A DNA stretch of 64,000 nucleotides from Candidatus Omnitrophota bacterium (GCA_020058085.1 JAGVER010000007.1:7969-71968); one strand, 5' to 3'. Counted from the first letter of the stretch, positions 1,332-30,700 are shown. Translations and numbers: made by a program. The notes: generated by a model from the letters alone, not told the origin.

Positions 1332-1434
1332 TACTTGATCTCACTATTGTTCGGTCAGTTCCTTGTTGCCTGCGGCAACAAGGATTTCGCTAAATCAAAC
1401 CTTAAGGAGCTCAAATACGAATAGTTGACAAAAC
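1332..1434 (+). repeat. Intergenic repeat family F1, copy A; carries an extra 10-bp hairpin (1361-1383) and ends in a TTGACA box
   Basis: Aligns by eye with 41469-41539: acttgayctcact..gttcggtca..atttcgctaratcaa..cttaaggwgctcaa..ttgacaaaa. Both copies start just after a stop codon. Confidence 0.6.
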
Positions 1435-1453
1435 CATTCCACTAAGTTACAAT
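1425..1453 (+). promoter_or_regulatory. Sigma70-type promoter candidate for the hydrogenase operon
   Basis: TTGACA (1425-1430), 17-nt spacer, TACAAT (1448-1453). Confidence 0.5.
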
Positions 1454-1552: not shown

Positions 1553-1849
1553 ATGCACGACACCCATCTATTAAGAAACATTTTCAAATATTTCGAGAGT
1601 CAGGAGAAATTATCTTCGCGTAAAATAAAGAGGGTTCATTTTTCTATATCTGAATTTGGGAGCTTAAATAAGGAGCATTTTCTTGAGCATTACAAGCAGG
1701 CAACTAGCGGTAGTAAATGGCAAGACATAGAAATAGCAGTTGATAGTATACCTTTTGGCCCGGAATTAGAGATTACCGGATTAGAGTTTGAAGTAAAAAT
1801 GGAGGCTGATAAAAGTGAAATATGCGAGCTTAAAGAAAACAAATCTTAA
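1553..1849 (+). CDS. hypA: HypA-like nickel metallochaperone lacking the zinc-finger cysteines
   Basis: N-terminal MHD (HypA has MHE), KRVHFSISEFGSL resembles the HypA core, and it sits ahead of the hydrogenase genes. No CxxC pairs and no obvious SD. Confidence 0.45.
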   Translation: MHDTHLLRNIFKYFESQEKLSSRKIKRVHFSISEFGSLNKEHFLEHYKQATSGSKWQDIEIAVDSIPFGPELEITGLEFEVKMEADKSEICELKENKS

Positions 1850-2849
1850 TAATTGGCTTGAATATCTAAAGAAGAAAGCAAAGTTTTATGCCCCGCGCAA
1901 AAAGGAAAACCTTTTTGTCTTCCGTCCGGTAAAAGACGTAGCAGATATCTGTCTTGAGTATATCCCCACTATTCTTCCTCCAAAGAAATATTATTTCCCG
2001 CAAAAAGAGAGATTACTTAGATTCAGAGCGCAGCCATTTAAGACCGCAAAGGCCATTGATAAATTTGAAGAGTTCATTCTTTTCGGGGTGCACACCTGCG
2101 ACATCGCAGGAATCCAGTGTATGGATGTGGTCTTTAGGGATGGTCCGGAAGATCCAAATTATCTAAATAGAAAAGATATGATGACTATTATCGGCATAGA
2201 GTGTTTAAAATATTGCGATAAATACGCTAATTGCGCTTCTATGGGTAATCATATTCCCCGTGGCGGATACGATTTAATGATGGTAGATATTGGAGATGAA
2301 TTTATTATACATATTAATTCGGAAAAGGGTGAGAAGTTGGTCAAGGAAGTCGATTTTATTAAAGAGGCCACAGAAAGCGAGATGGTTACCCTTGGGCGTA
2401 TCAGGGAAGAAAAAAATGAGATATTTAAAGAGGAATTCTACGCGTCGCTTCCAAAAGTCTACGAGTCCTTTGATAAATCTTTTGTTTCCGAAGTCTGGAA
2501 GGATCTGGGTAAAAAATGCGTAGGCTGCGGAAATTGCACAGCAGTTTGCCCGACCTGCTATTGTTTTGATGTGAGCGATGAAATGGAACTTAATCTGAAT
2601 GACGGATTGCGGTATCGGATTTGGAACTCTTGCCAGATGGATGATTTTGCTAAAGTAGCCGGTGGTGAAGATTTTCGTAAGGGAAGAGAAAGTCGGCAAA
2701 GGCACCGTTATTATAGAAAATTTAAATATCCGGTTGATAAATTTAACAGATATTTTTGTACCGGTTGCGGCCGTTGCACGCGCACCTGTATGGCAGGAAT
2801 TAGTTTGATTGACACGGTGAATGCGCTTACGCCCGTTTCTATTGATTAG
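1815..2849 (+). CDS. Group 3b [NiFe]-hydrogenase beta subunit (AsrA-like 4Fe-4S protein)
   Basis: GTG start with GGAGG 8 nt upstream; N-terminus resembles the Pyrococcus sulfhydrogenase beta subunit; CVGCGNCTAVCPTCYCFD and CTGCGRCTRTCMAG ferredoxin motifs. Confidence 0.85.
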   Translation: MKYASLKKTNLNNWLEYLKKKAKFYAPRKKENLFVFRPVKDVADICLEYIPTILPPKKYYFPQKERLLRFRAQPFKTAKAIDKFEEFILFGVHTCDIAGIQCMDVVFRDGPEDPNYLNRKDMMTIIGIECLKYCDKYANCASMGNHIPRGGYDLMMVDIGDEFIIHINSEKGEKLVKEVDFIKEATESEMVTLGRIREEKNEIFKEEFYASLPKVYESFDKSFVSEVWKDLGKKCVGCGNCTAVCPTCYCFDVSDEMELNLNDGLRYRIWNSCQMDDFAKVAGGEDFRKGRESRQRHRYYRKFKYPVDKFNRYFCTGCGRCTRTCMAGISLIDTVNALTPVSID

Positions 2850-2863
2850 TTTATTTGGTATTT

Positions 2864-2919
2864 AAAAGGCACCCAATTCTAAAGGGATGAATTGGTGCCC
2901 ATAACTATGGGAGAGACCG
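2864..2919 (+). promoter_or_regulatory. GGCACC leader motif, copy 1 (hairpin plus SD-containing tail)
   Basis: aaaaGGCACCCAATTC-taaagggat-GAATTGGTGCC-CATAACTATGGGAGAG, ending 4 nt before ATG 2920; the same architecture occurs at 55831 and 56543. Confidence 0.6.
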
Positions 2920-3786
2920 ATGATTGACCGAGAGATTCTTTTGGAGAAAATGAAGACTTCTCCTTATAAGCCGATGCAAGGTAAGATAATCGGCTCCGAG
3001 ATGCTTACGGACAAGGAGAAGATTTTTCGTATTGAACTCGAAGATAAAATAAATCTCGCTCATGAACCGGGGCAATTTGTGATGGTTTCTATCTTTGGTT
3101 TTGGAGAGGCGCCCATCTCTGTATGTTCTTCGCCGAGCGATAAAGGTTATTTTGAGATTACCGTGAGAAATGTCGGCGTGCTTACCGATAAACTGCATAA
3201 ATTGGATAAGGGAGATATAGTGGGAATCCGTGGACCATTTGGCAAGGGTTTTCCTGTTGATAATATGTTCGGATATGACATTATGATTGTCGCCGGTGGA
3301 TTAGGAATTGTGCCTTTGCGTTCTTTAATCCGCTATATTATGTTTCACCGTAATGACTTTGGAAATGTGCAGATGCTTTTAGGTTGTAAAACTCCGAGAG
3401 AACTTTTATTTGAAGTTGAGACAAAAGATTGGATGCGTAGGGCAGAGATAAAGTTTAACTGTACCGTAGACACGGGAGCGCCGGACTGGAAAGGAAACGT
3501 TGGCTTAATCACCACTTTAATTCCTAATGTTGATATTAACCCCATGCGTACTTACGTAGTGGTAGTTGGGCCTCCGATTATGTATAAATTTGTCATTGTA
3601 AAGCTTTTGGAGAAAAAGATACCTGATCATCAGATCATTGTTTCTTTGGAGCGTAGGATGAAATGCGGTTTGGGTAAGTGTGGCCATTGCCAGATCGAAG
3701 GCATGTATGTTTGTCAATCTGGTCCGGTTTTTAATTACGCGCAGTTAAAGAATTTTAAAGGAGAGTGTCATGAAAAAGCAATCTAA
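2920..3786 (+). CDS. Group 3b [NiFe]-hydrogenase gamma subunit (FAD/NAD(P)-binding, 2Fe-2S; AsrB/PyrK-like)
   Basis: RGPFGKGF, VAGGLGIVPLRS nucleotide-binding motifs; C-terminal CGLGKCGHCQ...C cluster. Confidence 0.85.
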   Translation: MIDREILLEKMKTSPYKPMQGKIIGSEMLTDKEKIFRIELEDKINLAHEPGQFVMVSIFGFGEAPISVCSSPSDKGYFEITVRNVGVLTDKLHKLDKGDIVGIRGPFGKGFPVDNMFGYDIMIVAGGLGIVPLRSLIRYIMFHRNDFGNVQMLLGCKTPRELLFEVETKDWMRRAEIKFNCTVDTGAPDWKGNVGLITTLIPNVDINPMRTYVVVVGPPIMYKFVIVKLLEKKIPDHQIIVSLERRMKCGLGKCGHCQIEGMYVCQSGPVFNYAQLKNFKGECHEKAI

Positions 3787-4534
3787 GCCAAGGCTGGCTT
3801 TTTTTGATTTTACTGATTGTGAAGGCTGCCAGTTGCAGTTTGCTAATTTGGGTGGCACCTTATTAGAGCTTTTGGAGTTAGTGGATATCGTTAATTTCCG
3901 TGAAATTATCTCTGAGGCTGCAGAGGATTATGATATTGCTTTTATTGAAGGTAGTATCACTACGGATAATGATGTCTTACGCATTAAGAAAATAAGGGAT
4001 AAGGCTAAGGTATTGGTGGCATTAGGTTCGTGCGCAACTATCGGAGGAGTAAACGGAATTAAAAATCGTTCTTCTCTGGAATTGGCCAAGAAAATAGTCT
4101 ATGGTGATAAAGCAAGCACAATCAATACTATCAAAACCATGCCGGTGCATGAAGTTGTTTCTGTAGATTATACGATTAATGGCTGTCCGGTTTATCTACC
4201 TGAAGTTGTCAGCGTAGTAAAATGTCTGCTTATGGGTAAACCTTATGTTGTTCCTAATTATCCGGTTTGTAGCGAGTGTAAAATGAATGAGAATGTTTGC
4301 CGTTATGAGAAAGATCAGGAGTGCATGGGTACAGTAACTAGGGCAGGATGTAACTCTTGGTGTATTAATAATGGTAATCGTTGTTACGGTTGCCGTGGGC
4401 TAGTGGATAATCCGGCAGCAGATGCGCAAAAAGATATATTGAGTAAATATGGATTAAAGCTTGAGGATGTTCTAAAGCATTTTACCTTATATAATGATTC
4501 TATGGGGGAGAAATATGACCAAGAGTTTAAATAA
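3770..4534 (+). CDS. Group 3b [NiFe]-hydrogenase small (delta) subunit
   Basis: FTDCEGCQ, GSCATIGG and a C-terminal Cys-rich FeS region; sits between the gamma and large subunits. Confidence 0.85.
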   Translation: MKKQSKPRLAFFDFTDCEGCQLQFANLGGTLLELLELVDIVNFREIISEAAEDYDIAFIEGSITTDNDVLRIKKIRDKAKVLVALGSCATIGGVNGIKNRSSLELAKKIVYGDKASTINTIKTMPVHEVVSVDYTINGCPVYLPEVVSVVKCLLMGKPYVVPNYPVCSECKMNENVCRYEKDQECMGTVTRAGCNSWCINNGNRCYGCRGLVDNPAADAQKDILSKYGLKLEDVLKHFTLYNDSMGEKYDQEFK

Positions 4535-5864
4535 GATAGATTCTCAAAACGTAAAAGTAGATGTGCATTATCTGACTAGGGTAGAGGGTCATGGCAATAT
4601 TGTGGTTGACGTAAAAGAGGGCAAGTTAACTAAATGCGAGTTTCAGGTAATTGAGTCTCCGCGTTTCTTTGAGTCAATGCTGGTAGGTAGGTCTATCTGG
4701 GAAGCGCAGCATTTAACTAGCCGTATTTGCGGTATCTGCGCCTGTGGGCATACGCTGGCGAGTATCAGGGCAGCCGAGGATGCTTTAGGTGTAAAACCAT
4801 CAGATGAAGTGGTTATGCTTAGAAAACTTTTACTTAACACTGAAATGTTAGATAGTCATATCCTGCACATTTATATTCTGGTTGCCCCGGATTTATTGGG
4901 GGTAAAGAGTATTGTGCCTTTGATTAAGACGCATCGGCCGGTAATTGAGATGGCTTTGCGTATGAAGCGGATGAGTGACTATGGCGGAGAAGTGCTTGCG
5001 GGCAGGCATATTCATCCTATAAGTTATGTCATCGGCGGGCTTACTCAACTTCCTTCGCGTGAAGGCCTAGAGAAGTTATACAATTTAATGTTAGAATCGC
5101 GTAAAGATGGCGAGGAAACAGTAAAAATAATTAAGACATTGAAGTTTCCGGAGTTTGAGAGGCCGACACAATATATGTCGCTTACTTCTGACGATGAATA
5201 TGCTATCTATGATGGAGATTTAGTGGTCAACGGAATAAAGAGCAAGGTGCGCGATTACCGTAAACTTTTTATGGAATCAGTAGTGGATTATTCCCGGGCT
5301 AAGATATCCAAGATTAATGGAAAATCTTACGCTGTAGGTGCGCTGGCGCGTTTTAATAATAATTTTGACAAGTTACACAAAAAGGCAAAAGCAGTGGCAA
5401 AAGAATTAGGCTTAAAGGCGCCATGCCATAATCCTTACCTTAATACAGCAGCACAGCTGGTAGAATGGGTGCATTGCTTGGAAGATTCAATTACTATACT
5501 TGAGAAGATTTTAAAAGACGGCTTAAGCGAAGAGAAGGTAGTTGTATCCTCTTGGCCGAAGAGAAGTGAGATGGGTAAGATTAAGTATAAATCAAACACC
5601 GGTGTGGGTTGCGTTGAGGTTCCCCGGGGTTCTTTGTTCCATGAGTATACTATAGATGAGGCTGCCCACATTACTGCTGCTAACTGCGTGATTCCCACTA
5701 ACCAAAATATGGGCAACTTAGAGGATGATATGCGTAAGATTGTGCCGGAGCTATTAGGCAAAAAGAGCCAGGAGGAGATTACTCTTGACCTTGAGATGTT
5801 AGCCCGCGCATATGATCCATGCATATCCTGTGCTACCCATCTTCTGGATGTAAAGTTCGAATAA
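4515..5864 (+). CDS. Group 3b [NiFe]-hydrogenase large (alpha) subunit
   Basis: N-terminal RICGICACGH and C-terminal DPCISCATH Ni-Fe ligand motifs. Start moved to ATG 4515, which follows GGGGGAG (the ORF track starts at 4494). Confidence 0.92.
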   Translation: MTKSLNKIDSQNVKVDVHYLTRVEGHGNIVVDVKEGKLTKCEFQVIESPRFFESMLVGRSIWEAQHLTSRICGICACGHTLASIRAAEDALGVKPSDEVVMLRKLLLNTEMLDSHILHIYILVAPDLLGVKSIVPLIKTHRPVIEMALRMKRMSDYGGEVLAGRHIHPISYVIGGLTQLPSREGLEKLYNLMLESRKDGEETVKIIKTLKFPEFERPTQYMSLTSDDEYAIYDGDLVVNGIKSKVRDYRKLFMESVVDYSRAKISKINGKSYAVGALARFNNNFDKLHKKAKAVAKELGLKAPCHNPYLNTAAQLVEWVHCLEDSITILEKILKDGLSEEKVVVSSWPKRSEMGKIKYKSNTGVGCVEVPRGSLFHEYTIDEAAHITAANCVIPTNQNMGNLEDDMRKIVPELLGKKSQEEITLDLEMLARAYDPCISCATHLLDVKFE

Positions 5865-5915
5865 AGTTTTCATTAATGAAAACTTTATTCGATTCCGCAG
5901 CACATTGCTGTGGAA
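5861..5915 (+). other. Two adjacent hairpins between the large subunit and the protease gene
   Basis: Perfect 26-nt palindrome taaagttttcatt/aatgaaaacttta (5861-5886) overlapping the stop codon; attccgcagca-cat-tgctgtggaat (5891-5915); no T-run follows. Confidence 0.45.
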
Positions 5916-5935
5916 TCTTAAGGTTATAGCAGACT

Positions 5936-6412
5936 TTGTTATCCAATAAAATTGCTGTAATAGGCCTGGGTAATACTTTAAGGAGAGATGACGGAATCGG
6001 CATAATTATTCTGGAATCCCTCCTTAATCATTATAAGCATGAAGCTATAGATTATCTTAACTTCGGCATAGCTAGTTTTGATCTTATACATCGCTTGCAG
6101 AATTATAATGTAGCTTTGCTTATTGATGGTATAGCAGCAGGCCTGCCTGCAGGGGAATTAAGGATATTCGGTTTAGAAGAAGCTTTTTTTATCGAAAGAG
6201 ATGGCCAGGAGGTGATGGTTTCATCCCATGAGTTAAATCTCAAAGATATTTTCAGATTGACGCGTAACCTGGGGATAAAGACTAAGATTTATGTGGCAGG
6301 AATACAAATAGAGGACATTGGCTTTGGCGAATCCTTAAGCGATTTGCTTAAAGAAAAGCTGGCTGGGATCATAAGGCAGATTGATAAGTTTATACAGGAA
6401 AGGTTACTTTAG
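5936..6412 (+). CDS. Hydrogenase maturation endopeptidase (HycI/HoxW/FrhD family)
   Basis: TTG start; VIGLGNTLRRDDGIG signature; SSHE His region; immediately downstream of the large subunit. Confidence 0.85.
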   Translation: MLSNKIAVIGLGNTLRRDDGIGIIILESLLNHYKHEAIDYLNFGIASFDLIHRLQNYNVALLIDGIAAGLPAGELRIFGLEEAFFIERDGQEVMVSSHELNLKDIFRLTRNLGIKTKIYVAGIQIEDIGFGESLSDLLKEKLAGIIRQIDKFIQERLL

Positions 6413-6417
6413 ATAAA

Positions 6418-7719
6418 ATGTGTTATGCCATTCCGGGGAAAGTAGAAGGTATAGTAGGGAACACGGTAATCGTTGACTATTTTGGTGAGAAGCGTAGGGC
6501 GCTTAATGAGTTGACGCAGGTTAATGTCGGCGATTATATCTATGCGCAGGGAGGATTTGTAGTAAACAAAATCTCTAGCTCTGAAGCAGAAAGCATTCTT
6601 TCTCTATGGAAAGAAACATTTTTTCGGCTACAGGAGGTAGACTTAAAGCTTTCGCATTTGCAATTGAAAGATAAAGACGTAAACAAAGTTTTACTTGAGA
6701 TATTAGATAAGGCTAGCCAGTCGAATGAGCTTACGCGTCAAGAGCTCTTATATTTGCTAAGGTTAGAAGATAAGAGACAGCTCGATTTGCTTTTTAAAAC
6801 TGCGAATTTCTTACGTCAAAAATATCACAAGAATTCCTGCTGTGTGCATGGAATAATTGAGATATCTAACTACTGTATTCGGGGATGTCAGTATTGCGGG
6901 ATATCTCATTATAATAAAGAGTTACAACGTTATCGTATGACAAAGAATGAAATTCTAGAAAGTGCACAGGTAGCTGTCCAGGAATATGGTTTTAAATCCT
7001 TGGTTCTGCAAAGCGGTGAAGATCCGGGATATAGTATTGATGAGTTAGCGGATATAATTAAAGAGATAAAGGATAAATTTCCTACATTAATCTTTATCAG
7101 CTTCGGAGAGATCGGTATAGACGGTCTGGAAAAACTTTATTCTGCTGGTGCGCGAGGTTTGCTTATGCGTTTTGAGACCTCAAATCCTAAGCTCTACGAG
7201 GGTATCCATCCCGGCCAGACCTTAGAGAGCAGGTTAAAGCATATAAAGAAAGCTTATGAAATGGGGTATATGATTATAACCGGGGGTTTAATCGGTCTAC
7301 CCGGGCAAAGCAAAGAAGATATTTTGAATGATATACTCCTAGCTCAAGAATTGCATGCGGAGATGTTTAGTTTTGGTCCATTCATCCCGCACCCCTATAC
7401 GCCTCTCTCAGGATTAAATCCGGCTGATCAGAGAGAAGTGATTAAAGTTCTTGCTTTAGCTAGAATCATTGATAATGCCCACGCTAAGATTTTAGTTACT
7501 ACGGCCCTAGAGACTCTAAGTAGGGAAGCGGCAAAGAGCGGTATGCTTGCCGGAGCAAATTCGTTGATGCTTAATGCTACTCCTATAGCCTATCGGCCAC
7601 TATATTCTATCTATCCTAATCGTGCACATCAATCTGAAGATATTGTTTTTCAGATTGAATCTACAGTATCCTTGTTACGGTCTTTAGGTCGCGCCCCAAC
7701 TGACCTGGAATTAATCTAA
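6418..7719 (+). CDS. hydE: HypC-like domain fused to radical SAM [FeFe]-hydrogenase maturase HydE
   Basis: Residues 1-75 (MCYAIPGKVEGIVGNTVIVDYFG..GDYIYAQGGFVV) match the HypC/HupF pattern, including Cys2. The rest aligns with Thermotoga HydE: CIRGCQYCG, RYRMT, VLQSGEDP, GLPGQ, GPFIPHPYTPL. Confidence 0.8.
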   Translation: MCYAIPGKVEGIVGNTVIVDYFGEKRRALNELTQVNVGDYIYAQGGFVVNKISSSEAESILSLWKETFFRLQEVDLKLSHLQLKDKDVNKVLLEILDKASQSNELTRQELLYLLRLEDKRQLDLLFKTANFLRQKYHKNSCCVHGIIEISNYCIRGCQYCGISHYNKELQRYRMTKNEILESAQVAVQEYGFKSLVLQSGEDPGYSIDELADIIKEIKDKFPTLIFISFGEIGIDGLEKLYSAGARGLLMRFETSNPKLYEGIHPGQTLESRLKHIKKAYEMGYMIITGGLIGLPGQSKEDILNDILLAQELHAEMFSFGPFIPHPYTPLSGLNPADQREVIKVLALARIIDNAHAKILVTTALETLSREAAKSGMLAGANSLMLNATPIAYRPLYSIYPNRAHQSEDIVFQIESTVSLLRSLGRAPTDLELI

Positions 7720-7772
7720 TTTTGTGAAATAAGGGGCAAAAATAACCAAAAGTTAGAAAATTAAGGAGTTTA

Positions 7773-9161
7773 ATGAAGTATATTAATGAAGAAAGAATCA
7801 ATAATTTGTTGGTTGATGCGACTAAATTTGATAGCCGCAAGATAGATGCTATTCTTAATAAGGCTAAATTGCTTAAACGGCTTACCTTAGAAGAGTCTGC
7901 CAGTTTGCTTGCTGTAGATGATTTGGTATATATGCAGAAGATATTTTCCGCGGCAAGTTTTGTTAAAGATAAGATTTACGGAAGGAGAGTAGTGCTTTTT
8001 GCTCCGCTCTATATAAGTAATCTTTGTGCAAATAACTGTCTTTATTGTGCGTTTAAGGCGGATAACTCATTAATTAAGCGTAGAGCCTTAAACCCTCTTG
8101 AAATTATTGACCAGACAGAATGGTTGTTGGGGCATGGCCATAAGAGAATACTCATGGTTTGTGGAGAAGATGCTCCGGGCGGAAAGGCTAATGTAGATTA
8201 CTATGTTGAAGCAGTTCGGGCTATCTATGCTGCAGAGGTTGGCAAGAATAAGATAAAAAGAGTTAATGTTAATTGCGCGCCGTTAAACATTGATGAATTT
8301 AAGAAGCTGAAGGCATCTGGTATAGGGACCTATCAGCTTTTTCAGGAAACATATAATCATGAGACTTATCTGCGTATGCATCCAAAAGGCCCTAAGAGTG
8401 ATCCTGATAATAGAATTGATGCGATTGACCGCGCATTTACCGCGGGAATAGATGATATAGGAATCGGAGCGCTTTACGGTTTATATGATTACAGGTTTGA
8501 AACTCTGGGCTTACTTTCTCATGTTGAGCATATGGAGAAGAAATTTAAGGTTGGGCCGCATACTATTTCTGTGCCGCGCATTGAGCCGGCTGATGGTGCA
8601 GAACTGTCTTTTAATCCGCCGTATAAGATTACGGATGAAGAGTTTAAAAAAGTGGTCGCGGTATTAAGGCTCTCTGTACCTTATACCGGGATAATTATCT
8701 CTACGCGTGAGAATCCGGAGATGCGCGATTCACTTTTAAGCCTTGGCGTTTCGCAGGTTAGCGCGGCATCACGAACCTCACCCGGAGGATATTCTGATTT
8801 TGATAAAGAAGATACCGGAGGGCAATTCTCTCTGAACGATTATCGTAGCCTAGATGAGGTAATTGCAACTTTGGTTAAGCATGACTATATCCCTAGTTTT
8901 TGCGCTGCCTGCTACCGTATGGAAAGAACCGGAGAAGTTTTTATGGATATGGCTAAACCCGGGACGATTAAAGGTAAGTGTAGCATTAATGCGCTGGTAA
9001 CGTTCAAAGAGTATCTGGATGATTTTGCATCTGAACCGGTTAGGAAATCCGGTTATAAGATGATTGAGCGTTATTTTAAGCAGTTGGATCATCTTGAACA
9101 GGAAAAGTTAAAGGTTCTTTTTGCACATGTTGACTCCGGGGTAAGGGATGAATATGTTTAA
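7773..9161 (+). CDS. hydG: Radical SAM [FeFe]-hydrogenase maturase HydG (tyrosine lyase type)
   Basis: CANNCLYCAF (CX3CX2C) and C-terminal CAAC-22 residues-C (CX2CX22C), the HydG auxiliary-cluster motif; AGGAG RBS. Confidence 0.85.
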   Translation: MKYINEERINNLLVDATKFDSRKIDAILNKAKLLKRLTLEESASLLAVDDLVYMQKIFSAASFVKDKIYGRRVVLFAPLYISNLCANNCLYCAFKADNSLIKRRALNPLEIIDQTEWLLGHGHKRILMVCGEDAPGGKANVDYYVEAVRAIYAAEVGKNKIKRVNVNCAPLNIDEFKKLKASGIGTYQLFQETYNHETYLRMHPKGPKSDPDNRIDAIDRAFTAGIDDIGIGALYGLYDYRFETLGLLSHVEHMEKKFKVGPHTISVPRIEPADGAELSFNPPYKITDEEFKKVVAVLRLSVPYTGIIISTRENPEMRDSLLSLGVSQVSAASRTSPGGYSDFDKEDTGGQFSLNDYRSLDEVIATLVKHDYIPSFCAACYRMERTGEVFMDMAKPGTIKGKCSINALVTFKEYLDDFASEPVRKSGYKMIERYFKQLDHLEQEKLKVLFAHVDSGVRDEYV

Positions 9162-12163: not shown

Positions 12164-13285
12164 ATGGAAGATAATACAGCGCTCGCTGCTACGCCTCTTA
12201 TAGATAAGCATAAAAATTTAGGGGCAAAACTAGCGCCTTTTGGCGGCTGGTTAATGCCTATTCAGTATAGTGGTATTATTGAAGAGCATAACTGGACTCG
12301 TACTAATGCCGGGCTCTTCGATATCTGCCATATGGGCGAATTTACCATCGAGGCTGATTTATCAAAAAGCAACCTAGATGATTTAGTAACGGTTAACCTT
12401 AAGTCGTTACCGGAAGGCACTTGTCGTTACGGATTTATGCTTAATGAGCAGGGTGGCATCATTGATGATCTTATTGTCTATAGGATCTCACAGTTTCAAT
12501 GGATGGTTGTAGTTAATGCCGCTACTACCAATAGTGATGAGGAACACATGCGTAAATACTTAAATGGCGCGACGCGCCTTGAAAATATCTCAACATTTTT
12601 GGGTAAGCTTGATTTGCAAGGGCCAGAATCAGGAAATGTTTTAAGAAGGCTGGTTAATGAAGATATACAATTGAAATATTATACTTTTGGTTATTTTACT
12701 CTCCTTGGTGAAAAGATTATTATTAGTCGTACCGGTTATACTGGAGAGTTAGGTTATGAATTGTATATGCCTAACAAAAATATTCTTCAGTTATGGGATA
12801 GGGTGTTGGCTGATAAGTTGGTTAAACCAGTAGGCCTTGGCGCTCGAGATACCTTACGCCTTGAAATTGGCTATAGCCTTTACGGACAGGATATAGATCA
12901 AAATACATCACCTTTAGAAGCAGGGCTCGAGTATTTTATTGACTGGGATAAAGAGTTTATTGGTAAAGCTGCGCTTAAGAAAGAGAAGCAGGAAGGATTG
13001 CCTAGGAGAATGATTTGTTTTGTCTCTGGTTCTAGGCGTTCACCGAGGCATAATTATCATATAGTGCATCAGGGCGAAGATGTTGGAAGTGTAACCAGCG
13101 GTTCATTCTCACCTAGCTTAGGAGTTGGTATTGGCATGGGATATGTTAGCCGTGAAGTTAAAGTTGGAGAATTGGTTGATCTTGTTGAGGGTTTAGTCTC
13201 TATAAACGCGAAAGTCGTAAATAAACCGTTTTATAAAAATGGTAGCGTAAAATGTGAAAGGGCAAAAAATGCTTATACCGGATAA
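12164..13285 (+). CDS. gcvT: Glycine cleavage system T protein (aminomethyltransferase)
   Basis: LFDICHMGEF, SRTGYTGELGYE motifs; operon context with gcvH and gcvP. Confidence 0.9.
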   Translation: MEDNTALAATPLIDKHKNLGAKLAPFGGWLMPIQYSGIIEEHNWTRTNAGLFDICHMGEFTIEADLSKSNLDDLVTVNLKSLPEGTCRYGFMLNEQGGIIDDLIVYRISQFQWMVVVNAATTNSDEEHMRKYLNGATRLENISTFLGKLDLQGPESGNVLRRLVNEDIQLKYYTFGYFTLLGEKIIISRTGYTGELGYELYMPNKNILQLWDRVLADKLVKPVGLGARDTLRLEIGYSLYGQDIDQNTSPLEAGLEYFIDWDKEFIGKAALKKEKQEGLPRRMICFVSGSRRSPRHNYHIVHQGEDVGSVTSGSFSPSLGVGIGMGYVSREVKVGELVDLVEGLVSINAKVVNKPFYKNGSVKCERAKNAYTG

Positions 13286-13658
13286 TCTTTTGTATACTAA
13301 AGATCATGAATGGGCAAAGATTGAGGGGGATAACGCAAGATTAGGGATTACTGATTTTGCTCAGTCTTCTCTCGGGGATATCACTTTTATTGATTTACCG
13401 AAGATAGGCGCAAACGTAAAACAGTCTGATTTATACGCTACAGTTGAGTCAGTCAAGGCTGCGTCGGATGTTTATGCTCCGCTTTCAGGCGAGGTATTAA
13501 AAGTTAATGATGAATTAGTCAACCATCCGGAGCTAGTGAATAAATCACCATATGAATCAGGATGGTTTTCAATAATTAAGATCTCCGACGCTACAGAAAA
13601 GAACAAGCTTATGACTCCTGCGCAATACAAAGGATATGTAGAAGGATTATCTAAATGA
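13269..13658 (+). CDS. gcvH: Glycine cleavage system H protein
   Basis: YTKDHEW and the lipoyl-lysine motif VESVKAASDVYAPLSG. ATG 13269 preferred over GTG 13254. Confidence 0.9.
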   Translation: MLIPDNLLYTKDHEWAKIEGDNARLGITDFAQSSLGDITFIDLPKIGANVKQSDLYATVESVKAASDVYAPLSGEVLKVNDELVNHPELVNKSPYESGWFSIIKISDATEKNKLMTPAQYKGYVEGLSK

Positions 13659-14992
13659 GTTATATTCCGCATACAGAATTAGAAAAAAAGGAGATGCTCA
13701 AAGCCATCGGCTTAAAAAGCATTGATCAGCTATTTAAGGATATTCCCTTAAGCCTGCGGCCCAAGTCATTCAATATCCCGCAGGGAAAGTCTGAGCTCGA
13801 AGTAGTTGAGTATTTCAAGCTTCTTGCAGCCAAGAACGCAACGCATCTTACAAATTTTGTAGGAGGCGGTTTCTATGACCATTATATTCCGGCGGCAGTT
13901 GATGCCTTAGCTTCTAAACCTGAATTTTATACAGCTTATACTCCGTATCAACCTGAATGCTCGCAGGGTTGGCTACAGGCGATTTATGAATATCAGACGA
14001 TAATCTGCGAATTAACCGGATTGGATGTTTCTAACGCTTCTCTTTATGACGGCGGTACTGCGCTTTATGAGGCAGCGATGATGGCAGTCCGGCTTACCGG
14101 AAGAAAGAAGATTATTGTTGATAGCGGGGTTAGTTTAATCTACCGTACTATGTTATATACTTATACTTCCAATCTTTCTATTGAATTTGTGGAGACACCT
14201 GTAGTTCACGGGCAGAGCTGCCGCGAAGATATATATAAGAATCTTGATGATAAGACTGCCGCAGTGATTGTGCAAAACCCGAATTTCTTTGGTGCGGTGG
14301 ATGATTTTTCAGATATTGTTGAACGCGTGCATAGCAAGGGCGCATTGGCGATAGCTTCAGTTTATCCGGTCTCTTTAGGTATACTTAAGAGCCCGGGGGA
14401 GATGGGTTTTGATATCACAACTGGAGAAGGCCAGAGCCTAGGTATTCCCCTGTCATTTGGCGGTCCGTATTTAGGTTTTATCGCTGTTAAAAAAGAACAT
14501 ATGCGCCAGATGCCGGGAAGAATCGTTGGTGAGACCGTGGATAAAGACGGCAAGCGCGGGTTTGTTCTAACTTTGCAGGCGCGTGAGCAGCATATTCGAA
14601 GAGAGAAAGCGACTTCTAATATTTGTTCCAATGAGGCACTCTGCGCATTAAGGGCTTTAATTTATACTTCGCTTTTGGGCAAGATTGGTTTACAGGAATT
14701 AGCCAGACTTAACTATCAAAAGGCAGAATTTGCTAAGTCGGTTTTAGATAAAGTCCCAGGAGTAAAAGTTAAGCGAAGCTCTCCTACATTTAATGAGTTT
14801 ACTTTGGAGCTACCTAAAAACGCCGATGAAGTAGTTAGCCAGATGATTAATAGGGGATTCGCTTCTGGTTTTCCCTTGGGTAGATTTTATAAGGGCCTGG
14901 ATAATTATCTTTTGGTCGCGGTTACAGAGAAGCGTACTAAAGAAGAGATTCTCAATTTTGCTAAAGATTTGGAGGCTGTGTTATGCAGTTAA
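13655..14992 (+). CDS. gcvPA: Glycine dehydrogenase (decarboxylating) subunit 1
   Basis: 445 aa; YTPYQPE(C)SQG signature; position in the gcv operon. Confidence 0.9.
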   Translation: MSYIPHTELEKKEMLKAIGLKSIDQLFKDIPLSLRPKSFNIPQGKSELEVVEYFKLLAAKNATHLTNFVGGGFYDHYIPAAVDALASKPEFYTAYTPYQPECSQGWLQAIYEYQTIICELTGLDVSNASLYDGGTALYEAAMMAVRLTGRKKIIVDSGVSLIYRTMLYTYTSNLSIEFVETPVVHGQSCREDIYKNLDDKTAAVIVQNPNFFGAVDDFSDIVERVHSKGALAIASVYPVSLGILKSPGEMGFDITTGEGQSLGIPLSFGGPYLGFIAVKKEHMRQMPGRIVGETVDKDGKRGFVLTLQAREQHIRREKATSNICSNEALCALRALIYTSLLGKIGLQELARLNYQKAEFAKSVLDKVPGVKVKRSSPTFNEFTLELPKNADEVVSQMINRGFASGFPLGRFYKGLDNYLLVAVTEKRTKEEILNFAKDLEAVLCS

Positions 14993-16434
14993 TTTTTGAG
15001 AAGAGCCGCGCTGGCCGACGGGGCTTTCGGTTACCTGAAGCTGATCTGCCGCTAGCTAAAGCTTTACCTGAAAAATACTGTCGTAAGCTAGAGGCAGAAC
15101 TACCTGAAGTCTCAGAATTGGATCTTGTCCGTCATTTCTCAAATTTATCCCGTCTTAATTTTTCTGTGGATACAAATTTCTATCCTCTTGGTTCTTGCAC
15201 CATGAAATATAATCCTAAATTTACAGAAAAAATTGCTGCTATGGATGGTTTTGCGGACCTACATCCGCTCCTACCGCAGCTTTCAGGCGGTGGCATGCTC
15301 GCGCAGGGATCGCTGGAAGTTTTGTATAATACGGAAAGATTGCTTAGTGAGATTACAGGAATGGCTGAGTTTACAACCCAGCCCCTTGCCGGAGCTCATG
15401 GAGAATTAACCGGAGTTATGCTTATTGCCGCGTATCATAAATCTCAAGGAAAATCTAGAAAACACGTTATCGTGCCGGATTCTTCGCATGGGACTAATCC
15501 AGCAAGTGCGGCAATCGCAGGGTATGATGTGGTGGTTATCCCAACAGATAAAGATGGATCGCTGGATATGCAGGCATATAAGAAGGCTTTAAATAATGAA
15601 ACTGCCGCAGTAATGCTTACTTGTCCGGATACTCTTGGCCTCTTTAATCCAAGAATAAAAGAGATTGCAGATTTGGCGCATAGTGTCGGCGCGCTTATGT
15701 ATTACGACGGAGCGAACCTTAATGCGATATTGGGTAAATGCCGTCCGGGAGATATTGGTTTTGATGTAATCCATCTTAATTTACATAAAACATTTGCTAC
15801 GCCTCATGGTGGAGGTGGGCCTGGGGCAGGTCCGGTTGGCGTTTGCGAGAAGCTGGTGGATTTTCTCCCGATATCACGCGTAGTGCGTCGGAATGACGGG
15901 ACTTTTGCTCTAGATTATCAGAAGCATAAAACTATCGGGTATATAGCGCCATTTTATGGAAATTTTGCGGTTATTTTAAAGGCCTACGCGTATATATTAG
16001 CGCTTGGAAAGTCCGGGCTTATTGAAGCAAGCGAAAATGCTGTGCTTAGTGCTAATTACTGCCTTGCACGCTTAAAAAATTATTTTAAAGTGGCTTATGA
16101 TAGAATTTGTATGCATGAATGTGTTTTATCCGCATCTCTTCAGTTGGAACAAGGTGTACACGCTTTAGATATCGCTAAATATCTTATCGATAAAGGCTTT
16201 CATCCGCCGACGATATATTTCCCGCTGATTGTTAAAGAGGCAATGATGATTGAGCCGACCGAGACCGAAAGCAAGGAGACGCTTGATGCCTTTATTGAAG
16301 TTATGATTGAAGCGGCAAAGCTCTCTAAAACCAATCCTGAAGTTCTTCGTTTAGCCCCAATTACTATGCCGATAAAACGGCTTGATGAAACAAGAGCTGC
16401 CCGAGAACCAAATCTGCGTTGGAAATCAAAGTAA
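14983..16434 (+). CDS. gcvPB: Glycine dehydrogenase (decarboxylating) subunit 2
   Basis: PLP-lysine region HLNLHKTFATPHGGGGPG. Confidence 0.9.
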   Translation: MQLIFEKSRAGRRGFRLPEADLPLAKALPEKYCRKLEAELPEVSELDLVRHFSNLSRLNFSVDTNFYPLGSCTMKYNPKFTEKIAAMDGFADLHPLLPQLSGGGMLAQGSLEVLYNTERLLSEITGMAEFTTQPLAGAHGELTGVMLIAAYHKSQGKSRKHVIVPDSSHGTNPASAAIAGYDVVVIPTDKDGSLDMQAYKKALNNETAAVMLTCPDTLGLFNPRIKEIADLAHSVGALMYYDGANLNAILGKCRPGDIGFDVIHLNLHKTFATPHGGGGPGAGPVGVCEKLVDFLPISRVVRRNDGTFALDYQKHKTIGYIAPFYGNFAVILKAYAYILALGKSGLIEASENAVLSANYCLARLKNYFKVAYDRICMHECVLSASLQLEQGVHALDIAKYLIDKGFHPPTIYFPLIVKEAMMIEPTETESKETLDAFIEVMIEAAKLSKTNPEVLRLAPITMPIKRLDETRAAREPNLRWKSK

Positions 16435-16441
16435 GGTTATC

Positions 16442-17173
16442 ATGAAAAAATTTAGGCTAATACGTTCAGGACCAGCGAGTGCTTCCTATAATATGGCGGT
16501 GGACGAGAAGATATTTTTTCGTTATCTGAAAGACGGTATTCCGGTTTTTCGTATTTATAGCTGGCAAGTACCTTCTTTTACCTACGGCGTTTCCCAGAAA
16601 CCTGAGCGGGAGATAAATATGCCTCAATGCGCTAAAGATGGTATTAATATTGCCAAGAGAATGACCGGAGGTGGGATGTTATTCCATTATAACGAAATAA
16701 CCTATAGCCTTGTCTGTAGTAAGGATGATATCGGTGAAGGGAAAGATGTTTTTGTTTCTTATCGTAAGATCTGCGCTTTTCTGATATTCTTTTATCAGTC
16801 GCTCGGTTTAAAACCATCTTTTGCTTGTGAAGTAGATAATTTTATTGATAATTCCGCGGCGCATCCATTATGCAGCGCCTCGCATGAAAAATATGATATT
16901 GTTATTAACGGCAAAAAGATCGGCGGTAATGCCCAGAAGCGTAATCGGCAAGCGGTATTTCAGCATGGCTCGATTCCTATAAGCCTTGATTGGGAATTGA
17001 TGCGTCGCTATGTGCGTTACTTGCCGGAGGGAGTTTCTTCAAGCGTTACCGCGCTTGCTCAAGAGCTTAAGGATCTGCCGAGTAAGGAAATTTTGGAGCA
17101 AAAACTTATAGATGCCGTTAGGCATACATTTAATGCCAGTTTTACGGAAGAAAAAGAACCGTTATTCTTATGA
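16442..17173 (+). CDS. Lipoate-protein ligase / octanoyltransferase family (LplA/LipM-like)
   Basis: BPL_LplA_LipB-type core with KIGGNAQKR; between gcvPB and lipA. Start moved to ATG 16442, after the gcvPB stop. Confidence 0.75.
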   Translation: MKKFRLIRSGPASASYNMAVDEKIFFRYLKDGIPVFRIYSWQVPSFTYGVSQKPEREINMPQCAKDGINIAKRMTGGGMLFHYNEITYSLVCSKDDIGEGKDVFVSYRKICAFLIFFYQSLGLKPSFACEVDNFIDNSAAHPLCSASHEKYDIVINGKKIGGNAQKRNRQAVFQHGSIPISLDWELMRRYVRYLPEGVSSSVTALAQELKDLPSKEILEQKLIDAVRHTFNASFTEEKEPLFL

Positions 17174-18000
17174 AACCAGAATGGCTCAATAAAAAAATAT
17201 CCCTTAGGGATTGCGCGGAATTAAAGGCGATACTAAAAGAAAGAAGAATTAATACTGTTTGCGAAGAGGCCAAGTGCCCTAACATCGGTGAATGTTTTGC
17301 CAAGCGGCAGGCTACATTTATAATTTTAGGTTCAGTATGCACGCGTGGTTGTTTATTCTGTGGGATACGAAAGGGCGTGCCAAGCTCAGTTGATCTTAAA
17401 GAACCCTCTCGTATTGCTGATATAATTCTTAAACTTGGTTTAAAACATGTTGTAATCACTAGTGTTACGCGTGATGATCTTTTAGATGGTGGAGCAGGAG
17501 TTTTTGCTGCAACTATTAATGCTATAAGAAAGCTAAATAAAAATGTTAAGCTGGAAGTATTAATCCCCGATTTCAAAACAGAGATAAATTCTCTGGAAGT
17601 GTTAGTTAAAGGAATGCCGGATATTATTGCCCATAATATGGAGACGGTCCCGCGACTTTATGAAGATATCCGTAAAGGCGCTTCCTATAAAAGATCATTA
17701 GAGGTTTTTAAGATTCTTAAAAATATCGCACCTAATATTCCCTTGAAGTCTGGTTTAATGTTAGGGCTTGGTGAGAAGAAAGATGAGGTCTATGCGGTTT
17801 TCGATGATTTAGTTAACGCCGGATGCTCTTATATGAGCATCGGCCAGTATCTTGCGCCAAGCAATGCTCATTTTCCGGTAAAAGAATATATCAAGCCGGA
17901 AATCTTCGATCGCTACAAAGAAAAGGCCCTAGCCGCAGGTTTTCTCTCCGTTAAAAGCGCTCCTTATGTCCGCAGTTCTTATATGGCTTCAGAGTATTAA
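17170..18000 (+). CDS. lipA: Lipoyl synthase
   Basis: CEEAKCPNIGEC auxiliary-cluster motif and CTRGCLFCGI radical SAM motif. Confidence 0.92.
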   Translation: MKPEWLNKKISLRDCAELKAILKERRINTVCEEAKCPNIGECFAKRQATFIILGSVCTRGCLFCGIRKGVPSSVDLKEPSRIADIILKLGLKHVVITSVTRDDLLDGGAGVFAATINAIRKLNKNVKLEVLIPDFKTEINSLEVLVKGMPDIIAHNMETVPRLYEDIRKGASYKRSLEVFKILKNIAPNIPLKSGLMLGLGEKKDEVYAVFDDLVNAGCSYMSIGQYLAPSNAHFPVKEYIKPEIFDRYKEKALAAGFLSVKSAPYVRSSYMASEY

Positions 18001-19074: not shown

Positions 19075-19473
19075 ATGAGAAGTAAGATTATTAAGCAGAA
19101 AAAGTCCGGGTTTACTTTAGTCGAGTTAATGTTTGCCGTGTTTATCCTATTGGTAAGCATTCTGGCTTCGCTATCTGGTCTTATCGGTTCTTTATTTTTG
19201 AATAATTCAAGCAGTAACCTTACTAGCGCAGTAAATGACGCTCAGTATGTATTAGAGCAAATTAAGGGTTTGAATTATACTACTTGTATTCAGAATAATT
19301 TTGCCGCGGGATGTTATACCTTGCCGGTATTTACTAATTTGCCGGGTGAAGCTGTAGCTTTGAGTCCCGCGCCTACGATCGGGCCTAGTATTAGTAAGAT
19401 AACCGTAACAATTAGTTGGCTGGATAAACAAAAGACAAGGAGTTTTTCGCTTGCGACTTACATTGCTAAATAA
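19075..19473 (+). CDS. Prepilin-type minor pilin/pseudopilin
   Basis: N-terminal KKSGFTLVELMFAVFIL cleavage/methylation motif. Confidence 0.75.
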   Translation: MRSKIIKQKKSGFTLVELMFAVFILLVSILASLSGLIGSLFLNNSSSNLTSAVNDAQYVLEQIKGLNYTTCIQNNFAAGCYTLPVFTNLPGEAVALSPAPTIGPSISKITVTISWLDKQKTRSFSLATYIAK

Positions 19474-20041
19474 AAGAGGTTTTAATATTGCTGAAGCATT
19501 ATTGGTGACCGCGATTATCGGGTTGCTAATGGGGAGTATTTTTTATCTCTTAAGCGCAGCGCAATCTTCAAGGTTTTTTAGTTCGGCTAAAACAGAAGTA
19601 CAGTCTGAGGTGAGGCGGGCTATGGATTGGATTGTTAACGATGTGCGTCAGACGATTAACTGGAGTATCGGGTCTAACGCTAATGATCCATCGAATACGC
19701 ATATTAAATTTAAGAAAGTCATCGGTTATTCCACTGCCGGGAGCGGTTCGGCGCTATTCGGTGATTTTATAGAATATACCTATGATTCTAACACAAATAC
19801 GATTACTCGTACTGATTTAGGCACTAATCAGAGCTGGGCTTTTCGTAATATTGTTCAAGCGCCATTTTATACTAGACTATTAGATGGAAGTATTGTAGCT
19901 ATAGATCCTGTAAGCCCGGGGAATGACAGTCCGGTTTTTACAACCGGGAATTTAGTTGTTGTTATAGTAGGCCAGAAGCAGGTTAATGGCGCGTCAAATA
20001 TAAGTTATACTTTAAGCGAAGAAGTAAAAATAAGGAATTAG
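19451..20041 (+). CDS. Pilin-like protein (degenerate prepilin N-terminus)
   Basis: NKRGFNIAEALLVTAIIGLL with Glu at +5; TTG start uncertain. Confidence 0.6.
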   Translation: MRLTLLNKRGFNIAEALLVTAIIGLLMGSIFYLLSAAQSSRFFSSAKTEVQSEVRRAMDWIVNDVRQTINWSIGSNANDPSNTHIKFKKVIGYSTAGSGSALFGDFIEYTYDSNTNTITRTDLGTNQSWAFRNIVQAPFYTRLLDGSIVAIDPVSPGNDSPVFTTGNLVVVIVGQKQVNGASNISYTLSEEVKIRN

Positions 20042-20050
20042 GAGATAGCT

Positions 20051-20947: not shown

Positions 20948-20961
20948 GGGGGATTTAATAA

Positions 20962-21414
20962 ATGAAACTGGCAACTAAGGCGGGTTTTAGCCTGGTGGAA
21001 GTACTTATGGCAACTGCTATACTGGCGTTTGCCATTGTCGGTATTTTAGGCACTTATGTTACTTGCCTTGTTTTAATTACTACATCCCAAAATGTAAACG
21101 CCGCTACAAATGCTGCGCAGGGAATAATTGAAGAGATCCGCAGTGCGCCTTTTCCTCAATTAGTAGCGGATTATAACGGAATTACTTTTACGGTTAATGA
21201 TATACCCTCTAGTATGGGGGTAGTTTATGTCGATGATACCACAAACGCCGAATTTCTAGATATTACCGTTAGTGTATGCTGGCGCCAGGGCAATAGGATT
21301 ATAGGTGAAGATACTAACTTAAATGGCGCGCTTGATGCCGGTGAGGATATGATAATTGCAAATGGGATAATCGATTCAACGGTGCAATTAAAGACTCAGG
21401 TGGCGAACAAATGA
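20962..21414 (+). CDS. Prepilin-type minor pilin
   Basis: TKAGFSLVEVLMATAILAF motif. Confidence 0.75.
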   Translation: MKLATKAGFSLVEVLMATAILAFAIVGILGTYVTCLVLITTSQNVNAATNAAQGIIEEIRSAPFPQLVADYNGITFTVNDIPSSMGVVYVDDTTNAEFLDITVSVCWRQGNRIIGEDTNLNGALDAGEDMIIANGIIDSTVQLKTQVANK

Positions 21415-21956: not shown

Positions 21957-21959
21957 CAG

Positions 21960-23267: not shown

Positions 23268-23270
23268 AGA

Positions 23271-23675: not shown

Positions 23676-23770
23676 TTAAATACTAGGGCTAAGAATGTCA
23701 CTAAGCCTTTTGAGCCGCAGATATTATTAGATAAAACTAAAGAACTTATTAAAGATTAACGGGGGGAAGA

Positions 23771-25444: not shown

Positions 25445-25472
25445 AAAGTTTGCAAGCTCTATAAAAAAATAA

Positions 25473-26684: not shown

Positions 26685-26689
26685 TGGAT

Positions 26690-30697: not shown

Positions 30698-30700
30698 ACT

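Follow-up and report, generated by a model that had tools for sequence, protein, structure and literature searches.

Why should an operon for a [NiFe] hydrogenase end with two genes of the type that matures [FeFe] hydrogenases, the first of them fused to a HypC-like domain? The question is raised by a stretch of 64,000 nucleotides (nt) of a Candidatus Omnitrophota bacterium (GCA_020058085.1, JAGVER010000007.1:7969-71968), hereafter the window, in which a single open reading frame (ORF; 6418-7719, plus strand) encodes a HypC-HydE fusion protein of 433 amino acids (aa) and is followed by hydG. Based on a computational analysis of this locus and its relatives, we consider it probable that HydG and the fusion feed an iron-CO/CN unit to the large subunit of the adjacent [NiFe] hydrogenase. 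This reading is carried by the recurrence of the architecture, its linkage to [NiFe] genes, the residue changes that set the fused HydE apart from canonical HydE, and the retention of fusion and hydG under purifying selection at loci where an [FeFe] module was lost.

The operon and its HypC-HydE fusion

At 1553-9161 on the plus strand, the window carries eight tightly packed genes (7.6 kb), of which the fusion gene and hydG are the last two. The features of this region are:

1425..1453, plus strand: promoter-like element TTGACA-17-TACAAT with 11 of 12 matches, a pattern match from a consensus scan
1553..1849, plus strand: mini-HypA with an MHD N-terminus and without the CxxC zinc-finger domain (Pfam HypA, 23.7 bits, below the cut-off of 28.9)
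1815..2849, plus strand: group 3b beta subunit (Fer4_22; best NCBIfam match sulfhydrogenase ShyB/HydB)
2920..3786, plus strand: group 3b gamma subunit (FAD/NAD-binding, Fe-S; Pfam and NCBIfam)
3770..4534, plus strand: [NiFe] small (delta) subunit (Pfam Oxidored_q6; NCBIfam HydD/ShyD)
4494..5864, plus strand: [NiFe] large (alpha) subunit (Pfam NiFeSe_Hases; NCBIfam ShyA/HydA)
5936..6412, plus strand: hydrogenase maturation endopeptidase (TIGR00072, 94.9 bits, cut-off 47.45)
6418..6654, plus strand: HypC domain of the fusion, aa 1-79, with Cys2 at 6421-6423 and Gln44, replacing His51, at 6547-6549
6655..6696, plus strand: partly conserved linker, aa 80-93, from the HypC helix to the HydE domain (homologue alignment)
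6697..7719, plus strand: HydE-type radical S-adenosylmethionine (SAM) domain, aa 94-433, with CX3CX2C at 6874-6897
7773..9161, plus strand: HydG, canonical type A, 462 aa, with CX3CX2C at 8025-8048 and CX2CX22C at 8901-8981

The intergenic gaps measure 71 nt between the large-subunit and protease genes, 5 nt between protease and fusion and 53 nt between fusion and hydG. Promoter-like sites are not more frequent in this region than in shuffled sequence. The hydrogenase has all traits of group 3b, namely the alpha, beta, gamma and delta subunits, the L1 and L5 cysteine motifs, a C-terminal extension and a dedicated protease; its large subunit contains RICGICACGH, RVEGHG, VPRGSLFH and DPCISCATH. 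The best NCBIfam matches of the subunits are ShyA-D/HydA-D of Pyrococcus, all below the equivalog cut-offs, so that the enzyme is a distant member of group 3b and not an orthologue. Judging from their sequences, the eight genes probably constitute a group 3b [NiFe] hydrogenase together with its own compact maturation module of mini-HypA, endopeptidase, HypC-HydE fusion and HydG. A tblastn search (E<=1) of the 64 kb retrieved no HydF, no [FeFe] hydrogenase HydA, no HypB, HypD, HypE or HypF, no second HypC and no canonical HydE.

The N-terminal part of the fusion matches Pfam HupF_HypC over aa 1-64 with 50.0 bits (cut-off 28.5) and scores 40.7 on NCBIfam HypC TIGR00074, below the cut-off of 48. 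It begins with Met-Cys in MCYAIPGKV, with the PG motif kept, and MCYAIPG is invariant across 83 homologues. In HypC, Cys2 is the ligand for the iron and for the large subunit, and His51 and Cys2 are both needed for iron and CO2 binding. Alignment to E. coli HypC reveals the loss of His51 in all fusion clades: the position is taken by Gln44 in the window type and by Thr or Tyr in MCLTIP-type fusions. By sequence, the domain matches Thermococcus kodakarensis HypC (2z1c) and also 3vyr. AlphaFold2 returned a single compact two-domain model of the fusion with a predicted local distance difference test score (pLDDT) of 91 and a predicted template modelling score (pTM) of 0.90. In this model, five strands in aa 7-52 form a predicted beta-barrel, followed by a helix at aa 54-79 (pLDDT 75-91) and by the linker at aa 80-93 (pLDDT 75-85). 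The ratio of nonsynonymous to synonymous substitution rates (dN/dS) of the helix and linker together (aa 54-93) is 0.15, an approximate value as dS is near saturation.

The remainder of the chain is a HydE-type enzyme. Pfam Radical_SAM covers aa 147-306 and NCBIfam HydE TIGR03956 covers aa 96-408 with 239 bits, just below the cut-off of 254.6. All HydE motifs are present: CIRGCQYCG (C153/C157/C160), RYRMT, VLQSGEDP, GLPGQ and GPFIPHPYTPL. The domain aligns over its whole length to Thermotoga maritima HydE (236 bits by sequence). Foldseek superposes the two with about 40% identity, a root-mean-square deviation of 1.5 A over 336 columns and a template modelling score of 0.93-0.96; the radical SAM CX3CX2C motif and the full (beta/alpha)8 barrel are as in T. 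maritima HydE. Both by sequence and by fold, the domain is much closer to this protein than to PylB or BioB.

Nonetheless, the fused HydE is a separate paralogue. The HydE domains of the window fusion and of those at loci L001 and L048 score 239, 246 and 230 bits on TIGR03956, all below the cut-off of 254.6, while standalone HydEs of loci L041 and L045 pass it with 331 and 360 bits. In a neighbour-joining tree without bootstrap support, the fusion HydE domains form clades of their own and the L041 and L045 proteins group with T. maritima HydE. A comparison of columns in T. maritima numbering, which we checked by the Met224 and Met291 of the literature, indicates what was kept and what was changed. 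Of the 80 columns with a conserved residue in canonical HydE, 60 carry that residue in the fusions too, among them the radical SAM cysteines and both methionines; the other conserved Arg and Met residues and most of the conserved Thr residues are kept as well. In the window fusion, these are Met316 and Met384 (Met224 and Met291, respectively), Arg133, 171, 173, 272, 349 and 393, and Thr254, 328, 361, 362 and 388. Thr103 of canonical HydE is also not conserved in the fusions. Three replacements are fixed in both fusion clades, namely Arg54 by His144 (6847-6849), Thr134 by Phe226 and Arg155 by Gly247, and where T. maritima HydE has His52, the fusions have gained an invariant Cys142 (6841-6843), which is absent from 46 of 46 canonical HydEs examined. 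Cys142 is part of an invariant pair, Cys141-Cys142 (6838-6843), that precedes strand 1 of the HydE barrel in MCYAIPG-type fusions.

We take Arg54, Thr134 and Arg155 to be the S3 product-exit site of canonical HydE. The S3 site lies at the bottom of the HydE barrel and was described, without residue numbers, as one threonine and two arginines that are important for maturation; an Fe(CO)2CN species on Met224 was trapped there, and the site is the likely exit toward HydF (PMC10114646). The three replaced residues would be this threonine and these two arginines. With its core kept and these three residues replaced, the fused HydE seems to have retained the catalytic half and rebuilt the hand-over site.

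The preliminary description, made by a model from the sequence alone, had read the ORF at 6418 as opening with a HypC module with Gln in place of the usual His and as continuing without interruption into a full-length HydE-like radical SAM enzyme, followed by a gene with both HydG signatures. It had placed both genes after the [NiFe] large subunit and its endopeptidase, on the same strand with short gaps, and had recognised no HydF, HydA or HypB/D/E/F in the 64 kb. The Pfam match and Gln44, the motifs, whole-length alignment and fold of HydE, the HydG motifs at C85/C89/C92 and from residue 377, the coordinates and the tblastn search all agree with this picture. The HypA-like gene that opens the operon (1553-1849) went unmentioned.

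Distribution and linkage to [NiFe] hydrogenase genes

The fusion recurs widely. Clustering at 90% identity of proteins from independent assemblies (NCBI, JGI, ENA and Logan) yielded more than 120 clusters with the same two Pfam domains at 62-100% identity, most of them named Omnitrophota. One genome per GTDB species was also scanned with two fusion-specific peptides, MCYAIPG[KR] and GDY[IV][YC]AQGG. At least 385 species match, mostly Omnitrophota, and the best 80 matches are all full length. Submitter labels beyond this phylum comprise Margulisiibacteriota/Saganbacteria, Brevinematales, Elusimicrobia, WOR-3 and Planctomycetia. Two complete chromosomes (CP070684.1 and OY969425.1) bear the fusion, and the plasmid collection contains canonical HydE only and no fusion. 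At 50% identity, around 20 fusion clusters remain, with two N-terminal types (MCYAIPG and MCLTIP), and the fusion clades are only 36-42% identical. Public annotations call the protein a HypC family chaperone, HydE, a radical SAM protein or biotin synthase. The architecture, for which the preliminary description had envisaged a query of domain databases, is thus real, and its neighbourhoods could be recorded.

ORFs called in all fetched loci were labelled by phmmer; the seeds came from the window, annotated loci and the hyp/hyc region of E. coli. The recurrent gene order is [NiFe] group 3b or group 4 genes, protease, (mini-hypA), fusion, (rex) and hydG. A [NiFe] large subunit lies within the fetched stretch in 68 of 80 non-redundant loci, and in 51 of 56 when at least 6 kb upstream is available; hydG is present in 45 of the 61 loci with at least 4 kb downstream. 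The hydrogenase belongs to group 3b in some lineages and to the membrane-bound, Mrp-linked group 4 in others, which implies that the module follows [NiFe] enzymes as such and not one particular enzyme. Of the two joint observations that would contradict the preliminary description, one was a lack of conserved linkage between fusion and [NiFe] genes in relatives; the linkage clearly holds, in 68 of 80 loci and across two unrelated [NiFe] groups, and extends to divergent triple fusions. Two HypC-HydE-HydG triple fusions were found: P0122 (906 aa) follows a group 3b operon and its protease, and P0129 (881 aa) lies between group 3b subunit genes with a mini-HypA nearby. The [NiFe] cluster around P0129 (L090, 5359-19205) has an unusual composition, with Oxidored_molyb, short Ni_hydr_CYTB-like and 23S_rRNA_IVP-family genes interspersed. 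Downstream of a further protein, P0140, there is a [NiFe] small subunit gene.

As a control, P0141 is a HydE-HydG fusion of 803 aa without HypC, and it adjoins a sensory [FeFe] hydrogenase and HydF. Its gene is located between the sensory-type [FeFe] hydrogenase gene (Fe_hyd_lg_C with HisKA/HATPase) and hydF, followed by feoAB (L092, 85-7324). On the complete Omnitrophota chromosome CP070684.1, the fusion forms a trio with mini-hypA and a type-B hydG (L048, 9751-12807) and no hydrogenase structural gene is adjacent; the upstream genes encode B12-radical SAM, FkbH-like, short-chain dehydrogenase/reductase (SDR) and sulfotransferase proteins. A gene for a Rex-type redox repressor usually separates fusion and hydG (about 49 loci; L001, 11321-11977), and it is absent from the 53-nt gap in the window. 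Past hydG, relatives carry Nfn-like, glutamate dehydrogenase, HD-domain, aldo-keto reductase, epimerase and aminoacyl-tRNA synthetase-like genes. Extra maturation factors downstream of hydG were considered and rejected, as the genes there are unrelated housekeeping genes; the operon therefore ends at hydG.

The linkage does not extend to the other Hyp proteins. Neither the 87 loci of the first scan nor those fetched later have a HypD, HypE, HypF or free HypC within 10 kb. With the same E. coli seeds, canonical HypA and HypB were recovered from L051 and HypB from L069, and no other locus has HypB. Canonical HypA combines an N-terminal MHE nickel site with a CxxC...CxxC zinc domain. Mini-HypA homologues occur in about 55 loci, have 80-98 aa, keep the nickel-binding end with MHE or MHD at the start and are without CxxC; the zinc domain is absent from HypA in the window and in almost all linked copies. 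The copy of L001 (9722-9964) scores 62 on TIGR00100 (cut-off 88) and matches positions 1-67 of the 116 in the model.

HydG, [FeFe] hydrogenases and genome-level data

The product of 7773-9161 scores 491 bits on the HydG profile TIGR03955 (cut-off 312) and 291 on the ThiH profile, far below the cut-off of 380. Its cluster motifs are CX3CX2C at C85/C89/C92 and CX2CX22C from residue 377, and it aligns over its full length to Thermoanaerobacter italicus HydG 4wcx (445 bits). The segment VGPHTIS is common to the window HydG, 4wcx and 4rtb, and its GPHTIS part presumably holds the dangler-iron histidine. In the neighbour-joining tree, HydGs of [FeFe]-bearing and [NiFe]-only loci interleave. HydG would thus seem to serve both pathways and to persist once the [FeFe] branch has gone.

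Another type of HydG, about 499 aa long, is encoded in 22 loci (e.g., L001, 11981-13480; L048, 11308-12807), mostly with group 4 [NiFe] hydrogenases, where in many cases it stands in for the canonical protein. It scores 460-463 bits, above the HydG cut-off, has an N-terminal extension of about 45 aa and is without CX2CX22C; instead, it carries an invariant C-x5-C-x5-C-x13-C (SFCTAGYRCGRTGKCIM...FCKLNA). With four cysteines, the auxiliary cluster could be fully ligated; alternatively, one of them could take the place of the free dangler-bridging cysteine.

An [FeFe] hydrogenase occurs in 11 loci as well, and all 11 carry [NiFe] genes too. Genomes with such an adjacent [FeFe] hydrogenase also encode HydF (552 bits on TIGR03918) and, apart from the fusion, a canonical HydE (331-360 bits on TIGR03956). 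The genome of L008/L091 has a fusion 81% identical to that of the window. Its gene order is [NiFe] 3b, protease, fusion, Rex, histidine kinase, NuoF-like, [FeFe] HydA, NuoE-like, response regulator, TM1266-like, HydG, a small ORF, standalone HydE, HydF and Nfn-like, and the fetched stretch contains one HydG only. Between the same flanks, L091 has the [FeFe]/hydE/hydF module, while L017, L021, L026 and others do without it and keep fusion, (rex) and hydG. At L009, an ORF of 84 aa directly after the intact hydG (12757-13008) is 84.5% identical to HydF residues 335-418, and its sequence marks it as a remnant, a deletion scar of hydE and hydF. None of the 36 loci with at least 4 kb past hydG has an [FeFe] hydrogenase; L045 has canonical hydE and a real HydF, and L009 the remnant only. 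Loci with and without the [FeFe] module are both frequent. In 11 [NiFe]-only loci, dN/dS is approximately 0.08-0.10 for the HypC domain, the HydE domain and HydG alike, which indicates purifying selection.

For genome-level information on the Hyp set, we used the source data of Seymour et al. 2023, which list TIGRFAM hits per genome (PMC10066038). Genome 190 therein is Omnitrophus fodinae SCGC AAA011-A17, 65-70% complete (PMC10066038), and corresponds to our locus L071, where the fusion adjoins a 3b hydrogenase. Its TIGRFAM hits include the protease, HydE, HydF and HydG and none of HypA, HypB, HypC, HypD, HypE and HypF (PMC10066038). The same pipeline recovers HypA-E in genome 104, and for genome 231 its KEGG Orthology (KO) table has entries for hypA, C, D, E and F (PMC10066038). 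That O. fodinae lacks the Hyp set, even though protease and HydEFG were found, is suggestive, not conclusive, as it concerns one genome that is 65-70% complete.

Several other features of the window deserve mention. At 12164-18000, 3 kb downstream of hydG, it carries gcvT, gcvH, gcvPA, gcvPB and the genes for lipoate-protein ligase and lipoyl synthase. The aminomethyl-lipoyl H-protein donates the bridging ligand in [FeFe] maturation. A functional link of these genes to the module was nevertheless rejected, as the adjacency is seen in the window and in none of the other loci and is probably a coincidence. The region 19075-34276 is a long run of type IV pilus or type II secretion-like genes with many small prepilin-like proteins, and includes an ATPase (23771-25444), a platform protein (25473-26684) and a YfhO-family membrane protein (27568-29913). 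Three radical SAM proteins of 337-371 aa, paralogous and encoded in tandem, come after an NTP_transf_5 protein at 58700-63752; the first of the three has a SPASM domain, and by its domains the set looks like a peptide-modification cluster.

Proposed route, alternatives and significance

We infer the following route, from its chemical steps and direction of transfer to the S3 assignment and the CO/CN stoichiometry. HydG, whose established activity is to cleave tyrosine and to form an Fe-CO/CN synthon, would build this synthon on its C-terminal cluster. The synthon would then be bound in the conserved upper pocket of the HydE-type domain, where attack by the 5'-deoxyadenosyl radical would remove the cysteine scaffold, as is established for HydE chemistry. 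The resulting single-iron fragment may descend the conserved Met384/Met316 relay to the bottom of the barrel, where the canonical S3 site, taken as the hand-over to HydF, would have been rebuilt with His144, Phe226, Gly247 and the new Cys142. Cys2 of the tethered HypC domain would take over the fragment and load the apo large subunit as canonical HypC does, after which nickel insertion via mini-HypA and C-terminal cleavage by the protease would complete the site. Where an [FeFe] hydrogenase co-occurs, the same HydG would also supply the branch of canonical HydE and HydF. We favour a role of HydG and the fusion in feeding the [NiFe] large subunit. It is a more tentative proposition, which we hold to be somewhat short of an even chance, that in these lineages HydG and the fusion make the whole iron-CO/CN unit of the [NiFe] site from tyrosine, without HypD, HypE and HypF and hence by a second, independent route. 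The four-cysteine HydG of group 4 loci could be a further specialisation of such a tyrosine-based [NiFe] route.

Both alternatives left by the preliminary description gain from these data. Shared maturation of two hydrogenase classes fits the sister genomes with an adjacent [FeFe] hydrogenase, canonical HydE, HydF and a single HydG in the fetched stretch, while a hybrid route in which radical SAM-derived ligands feed a [NiFe] centre is supported by the changes in the HydE paralogue, by the hydG and fusion genes kept without an [FeFe] module, by the loss of His51 and by the lack of nearby HypD/E/F.

A number of points weigh against the proposed supply of the [NiFe] site. The product of HydG carries two CO and one CN, the [NiFe] site one CO and two CN. 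The orthologous group of the window HydG includes HydGs in [FeFe] clusters of sister genomes, so that HydG by itself is uninformative on [NiFe] maturation; HydF is common in the family, and many close HydG relatives have it on the same contig. O. fodinae is an incomplete genome and encodes HydF. The residue numbers of the S3 site are our assignment from the T. maritima literature, the trees are neighbour-joining trees without bootstrap support, and with dS at about 1.5, near saturation, the dN/dS values are approximate.

The best-surviving alternative, which we consider unlikely, is that two independent functions share one chain. HypC would then act with HypD, HypE and HypF encoded elsewhere, HydE and HydG would serve an [FeFe] hydrogenase encoded elsewhere, and the fusion would provide co-regulation only. 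Such an arrangement agrees with the sister genomes that have [FeFe] hydrogenase, HydF and HydG within 10 kb of the fusion, with the commonness of HydF among close HydG relatives, with the canonical nature of the window HydG and with those Omnitrophota that do have HypA-F genes (genomes 104 and 231). However, the [FeFe]-bearing genomes already own a canonical HydE, which makes the fused copy redundant, and this copy lacks Arg54, Thr134 and Arg155, taken as the S3 hand-over to HydF. Fusion and hydG are intact and under selection where the [FeFe]/hydE/hydF module was deleted, His51 of HypC is lost, and HypD is adjacent in no locus. Independent functions explain neither why there is a redundant HydE paralogue with altered residues nor why triple fusions lie in [NiFe] clusters, nor the pattern of retention.

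Less probable still is [FeFe]-type chemistry only, with the HypC-like domain as an iron carrier for HydG and HydE or as a substitute for HydF, and with the proximity to [NiFe] genes as a historical accident. The triple fusions do show a physical cooperation of the HypC domain with HydE and HydG. For the HydG product, which is unstable in water, a dedicated contact for transfer was proposed (PMC10114646). Yet 68 of 80 loci lie by [NiFe] genes, and each of the 11 near an [FeFe] hydrogenase has [NiFe] genes as well. This linkage spans two [NiFe] groups and fusion clades with only 36-42% identity, the module travels with mini-HypA and the [NiFe] endopeptidase (with mini-HypA alone in CP070684.1), and HydE-HydG fusions in [FeFe] contexts are without a HypC domain.

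A different product unrelated to hydrogenase sites, such as another organometallic or sulfur cofactor or a thiamine- or biotin-type intermediate, is very improbable. JGI labels the two genes biotin synthase and 2-iminoacetate synthase, and the HydE score is below the NCBIfam equivalog cut-off; the HydG and ThiH scores (491 against 312, 291 against 380), the HydG-specific C-terminal cluster motif, the proximity of the HydE domain to T. maritima HydE rather than to PylB/BioB in sequence and fold, and the strict hydrogenase gene context argue otherwise. Finally, an assembly or frameshift artefact has a negligible probability and was ruled out, given the same architecture in more than 120 clusters, 385 GTDB species and two complete chromosomes and the partly conserved linker.

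Compared with known systems, the fusion is a variant with a substantial chance of representing an independent route to the [NiFe] cofactor. It resembles HypC/HybG/HupF in the Met-Cys start, the small beta-barrel with helix, the PF01455 match above threshold and the position after hydrogenase and protease genes, but differs in being fused to a radical SAM enzyme, in the replaced His51, in the sub-threshold TIGR00074 score and in the absence of adjacent hypD/E/F in the loci. With T. maritima HydE (3CIX, 5FEW and 7O1O) it shares the full fold, CX3CX2C and the cavity Arg, Thr and Met residues including Met224 and Met291; the separate clade, the score below cut-off, the replaced Arg54, Thr134 and Arg155 and the gained Cys142 distinguish it. 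The HydE domain is also without auxiliary-cluster cysteines and is linked to [NiFe] genes rather than to HydF and HydA. The window HydG is like the HydG tyrosine lyase, which forms the Fe(CO)2(CN)(Cys) synthon, in score, length, both cluster motifs and the GPHTIS segment, and is unusual in its context alone, i.e., in its place behind the fusion of a [NiFe] operon, within 64 kb that contain neither HydF nor HydA. The Chlamydomonas HydEF fusion is a precedent for consecutively acting maturases becoming fused. As in HydEF and the HydE-HydG fusion P0141, consecutive maturases are joined here; those two remain within the [FeFe] pathway, with HydF and HydA, whereas the HypC-HydE fusion joins components of two hydrogenase pathways. 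HmdB/HcgA of [Fe]-hydrogenase is likewise a HydE/BioB-like radical SAM protein that serves a non-[FeFe] hydrogenase, and the fusion has a weak TIGR03957 match of 76 bits; this is far below the cut-off of 321, and there is no Hmd or hcg context.

HypX, an aerobic CO source for [NiFe] sites, is an accessory diatomic-ligand route outside the core Hyp set (PMC12134894). It relies on a formyl donor in the presence of oxygen and does not dispense with HypCDEF, while the module described here is radical SAM based and strictly anaerobic and could supply both CO and CN. According to a 2025 review of the [NiFe] cofactor, six Hyp proteins are needed anaerobically and the anaerobic source of CO is the main open question; HydG is unmentioned there. 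The searchable full-text literature yielded no account of HypC-HydE fusions and none of a role for HydG in [NiFe] maturation, and matches there for HydG with group 3b refer to the Pyrococcus gamma subunit of the same name.

A compact set of eight genes thus couples HydG to a HypC-type carrier beside [NiFe] genes, in at least 385 species and several phyla. To our knowledge, HydG is the only enzyme that makes both CO and CN on iron. If the proposed supply to the [NiFe] site is true, the textbook rule of one maturation system per hydrogenase class would break down, the evolution of the [FeFe] and [NiFe] maturation machineries would be linked, and a much smaller gene set would be available for the heterologous production of [NiFe] hydrogenases. 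For these organisms, an entirely tyrosine-based route without HypD, HypE and HypF would also give a concrete answer on the anaerobic origin of the CO ligand. Even if HypD, HypE and HypF are present, the tethering of HypC to HydE would provide the first candidate for an enzyme that donates CO anaerobically to HypC-bound iron.

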